A DNA stretch of 64,000 nucleotides from an uncultured bacterium. Lineage in GTDB: Bacteria > Desulfobacterota > Binatia > HRBIN30 > CADEER01. How positions within the stretch are numbered: the first letter of the stretch is position 1; the number at the start of each line of letters is the position of its first letter. Below the pieces are notes generated by a model that had not been told where the DNA came from, made no database searches, and worked only from the letters and a program-made list of their open reading frames with translations. The stretch is taken from NCBI GenBank assembly GCA_963757755.1, contig CAVWTK010000004.1, positions 445,783 through 509,782 of the forward strand. The letters run 5' to 3'. The position numbers and the translations under genes were made by a program. Shown here in pieces: positions 54,323 to 59,627 of the stretch.

Positions 54323-55009
54323 ATGTCCAACTCGCGCGGTCGCACCCTGCTCATCGTCATCATCCTGCTCTCCGCGATCCTGCTCGCGGCCGGCAACATC
54401 CTCTGTCATGCCCTGGTGGTACAGGAGCTGACCGGCACCACCCCGCCGGTCGAGGGTGGCCTGATGCAGCAGATCATCCATTCGATCGGCCAGTCGGTCG
54501 GCCAGAACCCGCACTTCGTCTGGTTCTTCAGCGGCGCCCCGTTGCTGATGGGCGTGATCCTCGCCCTGCTCGTCGGGATGCAGGGCGGCGGGACGACCGC
54601 GGCGGCGGCGAGCTCGGCGGGCGGCGACGGCGCCAGCGAGGGCGCGCTGCGCCTGCTCGCCGTTCTCCAGAAGGAGGGCCGCCTGGTGGACTTCCTCGAG
54701 GAGGACATCCAGCCGTACACCGACGCGCAGGTCGGTGCCGCCGTGCGCGCGATCCACTCCGGCTGCCGCAAGGCGCTGCACGAACGCATGGAGATCACCC
54801 GCATCTTCGGCGAGGAGGACGGTGCGTCGGTCGAGGTCGCCTCGGGATTCGATCCGGCGGCGGTGCGTCTCACCGGCAACGTGCACGGCCAGCCGCCGTT
54901 CCACGGCGTGCTCCAGCACGGCGGCTGGCGCGCCGCGCACGTCTCGTTGCCGAAGACGGCGGGCGTCGACAACGCGATCCTCGCGCCGGCCGAGGTCGAG
55001 ATCGCCTAG
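54323..55009 (+). CDS. DUF2760-like membrane-anchored protein
   Basis: GGAGG lies upstream of the ATG at 54323. There are two N-terminal TM helices, then ALRLLAVLQKEGRLVDFLEEDIQPYTDAQVGAAVRAIHSGCRKAL...GFDPAAVRLTGNVHGQPPFHGVLQHGGWRA...ILAPAEVEI. I recognise this as the DUF2760 core. Confidence 0.72.
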   Translation: MSNSRGRTLLIVIILLSAILLAAGNILCHALVVQELTGTTPPVEGGLMQQIIHSIGQSVGQNPHFVWFFSGAPLLMGVILALLVGMQGGGTTAAAASSAGGDGASEGALRLLAVLQKEGRLVDFLEEDIQPYTDAQVGAAVRAIHSGCRKALHERMEITRIFGEEDGASVEVASGFDPAAVRLTGNVHGQPPFHGVLQHGGWRAAHVSLPKTAGVDNAILAPAEVEIA

Positions 55010-55045
55010 GCAATCAGCGCAGCACGCACAGAGGACCACAGAGCT

Positions 55046-56846: not shown

Positions 56847-56854
56847 AAAGGCCT

Positions 56855-59627
56855 ATGGCAGCGCGATTCATAGTCGGCATCGATCTCGGCACCACCAACT
56901 CGGCGGTCGCCTACGTCGACACGCAGTCGCGCGAGCGGACGATCACGTCGTTCGACATCGCGCAGCTGGTCGCCGAGGGAACGGTGGGCGAGCGGCCGAC
57001 ACTGCCGTCGTTCCTCTACCTGGCCGGCGAGCACGACGTCGCGCCTGACGCGTTGGCGCTGCCGTGGGATGCGCGGCGCGACTACGCCGTCGGCGAGTTC
57101 GCCCGCGCACAGGGCTCGCGCGTGCCCGGCCGGCTGGTGTCGTCGGCGAAGTCGTGGCTGTGCCACGGCGGCGTCGATCGCGAGGCTGCCATCCTGCCGT
57201 GGGCGGCGGCGGATGGCGTCCGCAAGCTGTCACCGGTCGCGACCTCGGCGCGCTACCTCGCGCACCTGCGCGAGGCCTGGGACCAGCGATTCGCCGACCA
57301 TCCGCTCGCCGCGCAGGATGTCGTGCTGACCGTGCCGGCATCGTTCGACGAGGTCGCGCGCGAGCTCACGGTCGCCGCCGCGGGGCAGGCCGGCCTGCCC
57401 CGCGTCACGCTCCTCGAGGAACCGCAGGCCGCGTTCTACGCCTGGATCGGCGCGCACGCCGCCGACTGGGAGGAGCGCCTGCGCGCGCACCAACTCGTCC
57501 TGGTCGTCGACGTCGGCGGCGGCACAACGGACTTCAGCCTGGTGCGGATCCGTCCCGACGGCGAGCGGCTGGCGCTCGAGCGGCTCGCGGTCGGCGATCA
57601 CATCCTGCTCGGCGGCGACAACATCGACGTCGCCCTCGCCCGCCTGATCGAGCCGCGACTCGGCGAGAAGCTCGACAGCCAGCGCTGGCATCTCCTCACC
57701 AACCTGTGCCGCGACGCCAAGGAGCGCCTGCTCGCCGAGGCGCCGCCCGGCGCGGTGCCGATTCACCTCGGCGGACGGGGGCGCGCCGTCGTCGGCGGCG
57801 CCGTGCCGGAGCGAGCTGACCGGCGACGAGGTATCGCGGCTCGTGCTCGACGGCTTCTTCCCGCTCGTCCCTGCCGACGCGCGCCCGCGCCGGACGCCGC
57901 GCGCCGGGTTGCAGGAGTGGGGCCTGCCGTTCGCGGCCGAGGCGGAGGTGCCGCGCCACCTCGCGGCCTTCCTCGCCGGACACGCCGGCGACCGGCTGGC
58001 CGACGGCGACGCGACGCTCGGCTTCCCGGATGCCGTCCTCTTCAACGGCGGCGCGCTCACCCCGGCCGTCCTGCGCACGCGCCTGTGCGACGTGCTGGCG
58101 GGCTGGAACGGCGGCCGTCCCCTCAGCGTCCTGGAGAGCGCCAGCCTCGATCTCGCCGTCTCGCGCGGTGCCGCGTACTACGGCCTGGTACGCCGCGGCC
58201 TCGGCGTGCGCATCGGCGGCGGCAGTCCGCGCGCCTTCTTCGTCGGCCTCGCGCCGCCGGCGGACCTACCCGCTGAGATGGTCGACGCCGTCTGCCTGGT
58301 GGCGCGCGGCCAGCACGAGGGCGAGCAGGTCGAGATCACGAGTCCCACGTTCACGGTGATCGCCAACCGTCCGGTGAGCTTTCCCCTCTTCACGTCGAGC
58401 ACGCGCCTCGGCGACGCGGCGGGCGCCGTCGTGCGCGCCGAGCGCGCCACGCTGACCGAGCTGCCGCCCATCCGCACGGTGCTGCGCTACGGTAAGAAGC
58501 TCGCCGCCACCGAGCTGCCGGTGCACGTCGTTGCCGGACTGACCGAGGTCGGAACCCTCGAGGTCTGGTGCCGCTCGCTGTCCACCGACCATCGCTGGCG
58601 TCTCCAGTTCAGCCTGCGCGACGCCTCGCCGACCGCCGCCGAAGACGAGCCGACGCCGGCGTCGAGCACCGAACTCGCGATCGCCGACGATCGCATCGCT
58701 GCCGCGACCGCCATCCTGGCGGAGGCGTTTCCCGCCGACGGCGCCGGCACGCGCAGTCCGGTGACGCTGATCCGCGATCTCGAATCGGCGCTCGACGCGG
58801 GCAAGGACGCATGGCCGCTCGCCGCCATCCGCGCGCTCTGGGATGTGCTGCTTGCCGGCGCCGCCGGTCGCGGCGCGAGCCAGGAGCACGAGGCGCGTTG
58901 GCTCAACCTCTGCGGCTTCCTGCTCCGTCCGGGCTTCGGCCACGCGCTCGACGAGTGGCGGATCCAGCAGCTGTGGAAGGTGTACTCGCAGGGGATGCGC
59001 TTCCCGCGCGCCGTCCAGTGCCGCGTCGAGTGGTGGGGCCTGTGGAAGCGCGTCGCCGGCGGCCTGAGCCGTGCCCAGCAGCAGGAGCTGTTCAACCAGA
59101 CCGCGCCCTTGCTGCTGCCGCGGCTGAAGGCGCGCATCAAAGAGAAGCGCGCGGTCGGACCGCAGGAGCTGCGCGAGTACTGGCAACTGCTCGCCAGCTG
59201 CGAGCGTCTCGCACCGGAAGCGAAGGCCGAGCTCGGGACCGCGCTGCTGCCCGCCGTGGCCAAGGGCAAGGCCACCGACGCGGAGATCTGGGCGCTGGGC
59301 CGGCTCGGAGCGCGGGCGCCCTTCGCCGGTCCGCTCAACTGCGTCGTGCCCGGCGCGACCGTGGCGGAGTGGGTCGCGCGCCTGCTCGAGGCGCCGTGGC
59401 CGCGCGTCGGCACCACGGTGTTCGCCCTCGCCCAACTGGCGCGCTGCGTCGGCGACCGCGAACGCGATCTCGACGAGCCCCTGCGCCGCCGCCTGGCCGA
59501 CCGGCTGCGCACGCTCCCGCACGGCGAACGAGCCGCTCGACTCGTCGGCGAGGTCGTCCCGCTCGAAGGCCAGGAGCGCGCGCGCATCCTCGACGAGTCG
59601 CTCCCCGTCGGTCTGGTTCTGAAGTAG
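56855..59627 (+). CDS. Atypical Hsp70-like ATPase, long form (~924 aa) with helical C-terminal extension; one frameshift near 57805
   Basis: The NBD motifs are VGIDLGTTNS, LTVPASFD, DVGGGTTDFS, LLGGDNID and LFNGG. The frame switches from ORF 56855.. to ORF 57843..59627 at GCCGTGC[C]GGAGC, and the paralog alignment (VVGGA.R.E...D....LVDGFFP) is restored by removing 1 nt. The last ~330 aa form a Trp/Leu/Arg-rich extension. Confidence 0.8.

Follow-up and report, generated by a model that had tools for sequence, protein, structure and literature searches.

What kind of machine is encoded where a small membrane protein is followed by two tandem Hsp70-like ATPases, and what would drive such ATPases? 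The question is raised by a locus from an uncultured Binatia bacterium (GenBank assembly GCA_963757755.1, contig CAVWTK010000004.1), of which we analysed a stretch of 64,000 nucleotides (nt; contig positions 445,783–509,782), referred to here as the window. The locus comprises three co-directional genes on the forward strand. Gene 1 (54323–55009, ATG start) codes for a DUF2760 protein of 228 amino acids (aa), gene 2 (55046–56773, TTG start) for a lid-less Hsp70-like ATPase of 575 aa, and gene 3 for a larger, 923-aa paralogue of the gene 2 product, which is split between two reading frames (56855–57805 and 57807–59627). Comparison with related loci identifies a DUF2760 gene followed by an Hsp70 gene as the conserved core of this module, of which the triad is the commonest elaboration. 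The three proteins very probably form one functional unit. We further propose that this is a specialised, self-contained Hsp70 system associated with the membrane, with DUF2760 as a non-J cofactor, a reading that we consider evenly poised between right and wrong.

The evidence for the core comes from gene order. We scanned a DUF2760 alignment over one genome per GTDB species, obtained 388 loci and analysed the best 80, of which 62 carried enough downstream sequence to be informative. An Hsp70 of the gene 2/gene 3 family follows DUF2760 on the same strand in 57 of the 62 informative loci, spread over about ten phyla. The full triad was present in 40 (Binatia, Myxococcota, Chromatiales and other Gammaproteobacteria, Burkholderiales, Blastocatellia, Desulfobacterota and Entotheonella), DUF2760 with a gene-2-type Hsp70 only in 15 (Planctomycetota, Chlamydiota, Sumerlaeota and some Chromatiaceae), and DUF2760 with a gene-3-type Hsp70 only in two. 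All-against-all clustering of the flanking open reading frames (ORFs) of the 80 loci yielded no other family conserved across phyla. Because of these counts, and because no other family is conserved, we place the core at the DUF2760 and Hsp70 pair. A preliminary description of this DNA, made from the sequence alone, had treated the triad as the unit; the triad is indeed syntenic across phyla, but its conserved part is the pair of DUF2760 and the gene-2-type Hsp70. In 17 of 59 loci, a 4-nt overlap joins the end of the DUF2760 gene to the start of the Hsp70 gene, which is consistent with translational coupling of the two. The DUF2760 family itself is large: in a library of 1.84 billion proteins, its members form about 1,800 clusters at 50% identity.

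The product of gene 1 matches the DUF2760 profile PF10816 at 165 bits against a cut-off of 25 (E 8.4e-49), over profile positions 3–124 of 124, and the domain spans aa 106–226 (nt 54638–55000). The identity proposed for gene 1 from its letters is thus secure, and so are the two N-terminal transmembrane helices ascribed to it, as both a hydropathy scan and an AlphaFold2 model place hydrophobic helices at about aa 4–37 and 63–87. In the model (pLDDT 91), these two long helices are joined by a disordered linker (aa 88–102) to a compact three-helix, four-strand domain. Fold searches with this model found nothing similar at E≤1e-3 in either the PDB or BFVD, and dynein light-chain rows in the output were disregarded owing to their low probability (≤0.11). 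The paired transmembrane helices are characteristic of DUF2760 proteins of the Binatia/Desulfobacterota type. Of the 80 homologues, 44 possess no hydrophobic segment of transmembrane grade and start instead with a short aromatic/basic amphipathic helix of the form LxLAF(K/R)xFF(R/K)(V/I)L, which could serve as a peripheral or in-plane membrane anchor or as a helix that docks onto the Hsp70. Such amphipathic N-termini were seen outside the Binatia and Desulfobacterota at loci L035, L038, L049, L054, L057, L065, L071 and others, with LGLAFRCFFRVL, IRAFKAFFEALKK and LSAAFKWFFKVL as examples. The label “membrane-tethered” given to the module in the preliminary description therefore holds for this lineage, with its two transmembrane helices, but not for most other phyla, where the amphipathic helix takes their place.

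The DUF2760 domain is highly conserved across the 80 diverse sequences, with about 50% identity between phyla. The conserved motifs are LQxEGRLxDF, DAQVGAAxR, IHxGC, GNVxGxPPFxGxLxHxGW and PAEVE, the last of which is strictly C-terminal in every architecture class and ends the gene 1 product as well. Residues H145 and C148 (nt 54755–54766) lie at positions i and i+3 of one helix and are at least 90% conserved among the 80 sequences, and H199 (54917–54919) is invariant; judged from this conservation, the three residues might form a metal or redox site. These features also bear on a different account of gene 1, according to which DUF2760 would be a regulated target or sensor rather than a cofactor: H145, C148 and H199 would serve as a metal-binding or redox-sensing site, and DUF2760 would be the single dedicated client remodelled by the Hsp70s, much as sigma-32 is by DnaK or IscU by HscA. 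The spacing and conservation of the three residues agree with this account, as does the PAEVE terminus, which looks like a docking peptide, and HscA offers a precedent for a specialised Hsp70 with essentially one client (PMC8215388). However, the monomer model shows the C-terminal tail as packed, with high confidence, which speaks against a free docking peptide, and the account overlaps with our best explanation, in which DUF2760 is a dedicated cofactor or obligatory client. We consider it very unlikely to be correct.

The products of genes 2 and 3 are 49% identical over about 590–599 aa (E 1e-157), and all the shared strings from which they had been called paralogues were found. Both match the Hsp70 profile PF00012 (58 bits for gene 2, E 7e-16, and 66.5 bits for gene 3, E 1.9e-18; cut-off 20.6), which agrees with the nucleotide-binding motifs of the Hsp70/actin fold previously read in them. 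The match is limited to the first 270–300 residues (aa 6–296 only in gene 2) and ends at profile position 280 of 599. A phmmer search of the gene 2 product against the PDB likewise matched the nucleotide-binding domain (NBD) of DnaK only. In gene 2, the NBD covers about aa 1–430 and is followed by a linker, RGRGVRIRGG (about aa 431–440), and by a domain resembling the beta-sandwich part of an Hsp70 substrate-binding domain (SBD-beta; about aa 440–575). NCBIfam models for DnaK and HscA score about 41–92 bits on the two proteins against cut-offs of 620–1019, and no HscC model is among their NCBIfam matches. The MreB profile PF06723 matches at 32 bits over positions of about 78–191 of 327, beneath the stronger HSP70 match; as no full-length match was obtained, we rejected an MreB or actin-like filament identity and regard this similarity as one of fold level only.

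We aligned 62 gene-2-type and 43 gene-3-type sequences from the related loci. The equivalents of DnaK residues D8, T11, K70, E171, D194, G196, T199 and D201 are invariant in both sets (62/62 and 43/43), and the two glycines of the adenosine motif are invariant except for a Gly-to-Ala change at the second position in one gene-3-type sequence. Because the catalytic residues are invariant, both proteins look like competent ATPases. The surfaces through which J-domain proteins engage Hsp70s have changed: the equivalent of R167 is mostly threonine, that of N170 is invariantly glutamate and that of T173 is mostly glutamine. The interdomain linker also has a basic, glycine-rich consensus (RGxGVRIRGG) and not the hydrophobic VLLLD.

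The C-terminal regions of the two ATPases proved harder to classify. In an AlphaFold2 model of aa 425–923 of the gene 3 product (59 homologues, pLDDT 87), a nine-strand beta domain is connected by a disordered linker to a helical domain with about 16 helices. The beta domain, of about 130 residues, spans aa 460–586 (nt 58233–58613). When it was compared with the PDB by Foldseek, the best 50 rows were all Hsp70 SBDs (DnaK 4r5l, 1dkx and 4ezy; Hsc70, BiP and C. elegans HSP70), with probabilities of about 1.0 and a TM-score of about 0.5 to the isolated SBD-beta; these matches are model-based and marginal, with E values of 1e-3 to 1e-2 and none ≤0.001. Sequence methods did not recover the relationship: a profile of 26 C-terminal sequences matched no SBD in the PDB by hmmsearch, and its hhalign comparison with residues 389–607 of E. 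coli DnaK, a query checked to be identical to PDB entries, gave a probability of 1.3%. Since structure comparison matches Hsp70 SBDs while sequence methods do not, we regard the beta domain as a putative, very divergent SBD-beta, neither an ordinary SBD nor a new domain. The structure search was performed on gene 3, and the assignment extends to gene 2 by their 49% paralogy.

Beyond the beta domain the two proteins differ. The gene 2 chain ends right after the last beta strand, so that the helical lid (SBD-alpha) is missing. In gene 3, the position of the lid is taken by the disordered linker and an all-helical domain of about 300 aa (nt ~58686–59588). The C-terminal ~250 aa (nt 58878–59621) match PF12531 (DUF3731, “DNA-K related protein”) at 275.5 bits against a cut-off of 25 (E 6.9e-82) and over profile positions 1–248 of 248, and homologues of gene 3 also join PF00012 and PF12531 in one chain. 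Two earlier claims are modified by these results. The beta-sandwich and lid of DnaK had been thought to be replaced in both proteins by a different domain of about 150 aa; the lid is indeed lost or replaced, whereas the beta domain is, by model, a divergent SBD-beta, which goes halfway towards the ordinary DnaK SBD that the preliminary description had set against its own view. The helical extension of about 330 aa attributed to gene 3 is present and modelled as helical, but it belongs to a known Pfam family and is not anonymous.

If the J-domain contacts are altered, the genomic surroundings might still supply a partner. A phmmer search with the E. coli DnaJ J-domain detected no J-domain protein among the six-frame ORFs of the window, in keeping with what had been noted from the letters, and the same ORFs contain no canonical DnaK SBD and no further Hsp70; GrpE had no search of its own. 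J-domain ORFs occur near only three of the 80 related loci. One of them, in a Desulfopila metagenome-assembled genome (MAG; locus L070, 15032–16066, minus strand, E 1e-18), comes directly after the gene-3-type Hsp70 gene and is encoded on the other strand, and because such ORFs are near 3 of 80 loci only, this neighbour is probably coincidental. None of the 80 loci shows linkage to dnaK.

The loss of J-contact residues could also be explained if genes 2 and 3 encoded Hsp110-like co-chaperones that enhance nucleotide exchange or disaggregation by the housekeeping DnaK through NBD–NBD heterodimers, with DUF2760 only localising or regulating them. Such a role has been proposed in a recent review for those bacterial DnaK derivatives that contain an NBD, which are found only alongside canonical DnaK (PMC13580251), and the altered J-contacts would fit the loss of J-stimulation in Hsp110, just as the extended C-terminus and atypical linker of gene 3 recall that family. 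Against this, the tandem arrangement suggests that the paralogues are partners of each other and not of DnaK, their catalytic residues are strictly invariant in both, and the coupling is tightly to DUF2760 and not to dnaK. The two-gene form, with its single Hsp70, also fits poorly. On this evidence a role of the pair as Hsp110-like co-chaperones of DnaK appears unlikely.

The integrity of gene 3 required separate consideration. The preliminary description had treated 56855–59627 as a single gene, overlooking that this span of 2773 nt is not divisible by three and falls into two ORFs. The first frame remains open over 56855–58276, and homology within it ends at about 57805 (about aa 317), after which it continues from about 57807 in the +1 frame. 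The shift falls after the VVGGA codons and before those for SELTGDE, and can be ascribed to an apparent one-base insertion at 57806 (gtgCcgg), the exact base being inferred. The first frame (56855–57805) then encodes aa 1–317 of the rebuilt protein, which is most of the NBD, and the second (57807–59627) encodes aa 318–923, comprising the end of the NBD, the SBD-beta-like domain, the linker and the helical domain. Removal of C57806 restores a 923-aa protein that aligns without gaps to the single-ORF homologues P0001–P0020; the rebuilt junction reads VVGGAV/RSELTGDEV, where the counterpart is VIGGAVQAELTREEV in P0001 and VVGGALRAEVARDD in gene 2. Full-length homologues measure 915–950 aa, each in one ORF, and the closest of them shares 88% identity with the rebuilt protein along 100% of its length.

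Taken at face value, the shift would make gene 3 a true pseudogene in this genome, part of a decaying module in which the DUF2760 and gene 2 pair alone is functional. The public annotation of the source assembly contains only the downstream 594-aa ORF (P0055), and the two-gene form occurs naturally in other phyla, both of which would suit this explanation. Yet apart from one base the gene is full length and free of further lesions. The central metabolic gene gltB in the window (minus strand; ORFs 46820–50659 and 50497–51603) shows at least two frameshifts about 100 nt apart, at ~50600–50720: positions 1–171 and 208–420 of the GATase_2 profile fall on different ORFs, and one 15-aa segment lies in a third frame. 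Split gene-2-type or gene-3-type Hsp70 genes also occur in MAG loci L004, L028, L056, L058 and L064, which is consistent with frequent assembly indels. Because of the gltB frameshifts and these split copies, we read the lesion in gene 3 as probably an assembly or sequencing indel, and decay of the gene as improbable.

Taken together, these data suggest how the module may work. DUF2760 would act as a dedicated cofactor (or obligatory client) of the gene-2-type Hsp70, assuming the targeting and regulating role of J-domain proteins. It would position the ATPase on the cytoplasmic side of the inner membrane, through two transmembrane helices in this lineage and through the amphipathic helix in most others. 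Powered by ATP, the beta-sandwich of the Hsp70s would open and close around a limited range of clients, possibly membrane-proximal proteins or the PAEVE tail of DUF2760 itself, in a cycle that would proceed without a J-protein or GrpE. The gene 3 paralogue may have an accessory part, perhaps partnering gene 2 in the manner of Hsp110, and its DUF3731 helical domain would substitute for the lid or recruit clients. DUF2760 and the products of genes 2 and 3 might assemble into a heteromeric machine, as the preliminary description suggested. A bolder version holds that DUF2760 is a new kind of Hsp70 co-chaperone, of novel fold and membrane-associated, which stands in for J-domain protein and exchange factor alike, and that the module represents a fourth, widely distributed prokaryotic Hsp70 class whose two lid-less paralogues act as a heterodimer on membrane-proximal clients; this we offer tentatively, as less likely than not.

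Several points weigh against the proposal of a self-contained, membrane-associated system. DUF2760 occurs without an adjacent Hsp70 in 5 of the 62 informative loci. The SBD-beta assignment carries the marginal structure matches and the negative profile comparisons given above. We infer the interaction, membrane localisation, ATPase activity and client binding alike, and membrane association outside this lineage is a guess, given the 44 DUF2760 proteins that start with an amphipathic helix. These Hsp70s might still draw on J-domain proteins and GrpE from genes at other sites in the genome. Lastly, a two-gene copy on plasmid pTs485 of Thiodictyon syntrophicum (locus L081, NZ_CP020372.1 339309–357677) lies among genes annotated as anti-phage.

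This last copy leads to the possibility that the module serves in conflict or anti-phage defence, or as another stress-triggered switch, with the Hsp70-like NTPases as sensors, as proposed for CnuD. The neighbours of the Thiodictyon copy include anti-phage DUF3780, DUF1156 and PLD-like genes, VapC, a Uma2 endonuclease and a TIR-domain gene, and this is the sole context resembling a defence island that we found. A full triad is carried by a conjugative Bradyrhizobium plasmid, the module is patchily spread across phyla, and CnuD has a similar outline of Hsp70 NBD/SBD and helical repeats (PMC11090510). In PADLOC-DB 2.0, the NBDs gave a weak, partial match to PDC-M61B (E 3e-8 and 3e-4), with gene 1 and the DUF3731 part unmatched. 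However, the module contains no effector domain and matches no real PADLOC model. Of 72,556 plasmid records, only 11 contained DUF2760, most of them megaplasmids or chromids, and a tblastn search of 50,697 phage records found it in none; a scan of IMG/VR confirmed no relative, and neither gene 1 nor the gene 3 C-terminus matched a PHROG. Neighbours in 13 diverse loci belong mainly to housekeeping families, with a few generic PADLOC helicase/ATPase matches. The context is stable in Binatia (ROK kinase, Lrp/AsnC, gltBD, a beta-lactamase-like gene and FAD oxidase) and in Chlamydiae, where the module lies upstream of the tuf-nusG-rplKAJL cluster. Identity of about 50% between phyla is unusually high for a defence gene, and the ATPase motifs are intact here but degenerate in CnuD. 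With PADLOC, PHROGs, phage tblastn, IMG/VR and neighbour scans giving no support and the Thiodictyon island being anecdotal, we set the defence explanation aside as quite improbable. Culturable carriers of the module appear to include Burkholderia and Bradyrhizobium.

Returning to the locus itself, the window has a G+C content of about 70%. A GGAGG Shine-Dalgarno-like motif was read from the sequence at 54309–54313 on the forward strand, 9 nt 5' of the gene 1 ATG, and genes 1 and 2 share a reading frame. The coordinates of the three co-directional genes were confirmed, with spacers of 36 nt between genes 1 and 2 and 81 nt between genes 2 and 3, as first described. The second spacer holds a perfect 29-bp inverted repeat with an 11-nt loop (56778–56846, forward strand). 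Its 5' arm consists of three tandem octamers NCACGGAG (pattern NCRCRGAG), such that three GGAG face three CTCC, and its predicted RNA fold has an energy of −66.6 kcal/mol (z = −11.5). The 3' end of the stem adjoins the ribosome-binding region of gene 3. Our guess is that the hairpin is an intercistronic element like a repetitive extragenic palindrome, which would uncouple gene 3 expression. An Rfam search gave no match reaching a gathering score and only sub-threshold miRNA-like matches, and a promoter and terminator consensus scan of the locus was uninformative in this region of 72% GC. A sister hairpin lies in the gltB–gltD spacer of the window (46731–46811), and similar octamer-repeat hairpins occur in the same or DUF2760-flanking spacers of Binatia relatives and a Blastocatellia locus, the latter with −107 kcal/mol (loci L002:4077–4180, L007:11640–11712 and L071:9970–10100). 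Ten of 11 matches to a hairpin regular expression in 1.3 Mb fell at triad spacers, an enrichment biased by the fact that the expression was built from this hairpin.

The flanks within the window encode a ROK kinase, Lrp/AsnC, gltBD, an FAD oxidase and secreted Thr/Pro-rich proteins. Two paralogous secreted proteins border the triad in inverted orientation (52155–53264, plus strand; 59767–60990, minus strand). Both start with a Cys-rich module (AMCCVC.G..C.A.FC.D......C..LC....CP.VVF...D.C.GGC) that is followed by long Thr/Pro-rich linkers; one has a C-terminal DUF7450 (E 2e-6) and the other an end resembling an EF-hand or dockerin.

How does the module relate to systems already described? Three types of prokaryotic Hsp70 are recognised, DnaK, HscA and HscC, each driven by a J-domain protein (PMC8215388), and the module falls outside all three. 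A 2026 review describes bacterial DnaK derivatives as largely unexplored “dark matter” (PMC13580251), of which the present module is a sharply defined and conserved unit, with DUF2760 in at least ten phyla; the finding is thus general to the family and not peculiar to this window or genome. The searchable literature contained no functional study of DUF2760, DUF3731, PF10816, PF12531 or PDC-M61 and no published function for the triad, which agrees with the preliminary description. One annotation-level lead comes from Vibrio cholerae, a probable carrier only, in which the three-gene operon VC1373–VC1375 is annotated with two DnaK-related proteins and was scored as repressed in biofilms (PMC9201469). 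HapR binds between VC1375 and VC1376, and its activation of the VC1375 promoter was observed both in vivo and in vitro (PMC10328515). VC1375 may correspond to DUF2760 and VC1373/VC1374 to the two paralogues; the Pfam description of PF12531 resembles the label given to these two proteins.

Among systems of similar outline, CnuD of type III CoCoNuT (McrBC-like) systems joins an Hsp70-like NBD and SBD to HEAT-like repeats (PMC11090510), as gene 3 joins its own to a helical domain. The Walker-like motifs of CnuD are degenerate, and its gene invariably accompanies those for an McrB-like GTPase and an McrC-like (DUF2357) protein, whereas here the ATPase residues are invariant and there is no McrBC-like neighbour. 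The eukaryotic pairing of Hsp70 with Hsp110 (Sse1/Grp170) is comparable in having two paralogues, one of them enlarged at the C-terminus and with a divergent linker, and by analogy (PMC13580251) an NBD–NBD heterodimer is plausible. The enlargement here, however, is a separate DUF3731 helical domain and not an SBD insertion, both partners are without an Hsp70-type lid, and a third, non-Hsp70 component is obligatory. With the DnaK–DnaJ–GrpE system the module shares an actin-fold NBD with all catalytic residues, the order of NBD, linker and beta-sandwich and, by model, an SBD-beta-like domain; it differs in the missing SBD-alpha lid and VLLLD linker of genes 2 and 3, in an SBD invisible to sequence methods and in having no linked J-protein.

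Another close parallel is HscC with its membrane tail-anchored J-domain proteins DjlB and DjlC (E. coli ybeW and ybeV/ybeS). HscC is a specialised, low-abundance Hsp70 of about 550–580 aa with an altered or shortened lid (PMC8215388), similar in size to the 575-aa gene 2 product, and a gene for a small membrane-anchored cofactor adjoins it, much as DUF2760 directly precedes gene 2. GrpE is not needed by HscC, and action at the inner membrane is presumed (PMC8215388). Unlike DjlB and DjlC, the cofactor proposed here has no J-domain (gene 1 has no DnaJ Pfam match) and a fold without a solved relative, and the J-contact residues and hydrophobic linker are not conserved in the Hsp70s, which are usually joined by a second, DUF3731-bearing paralogue. 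The mechanism of DUF2760 would show whether the Hsp70 ATPase cycle can be controlled without a J-domain, for this module combines an intact Hsp70 engine, in which every handle used by known cofactors is changed, with a single conserved partner of no known fold.

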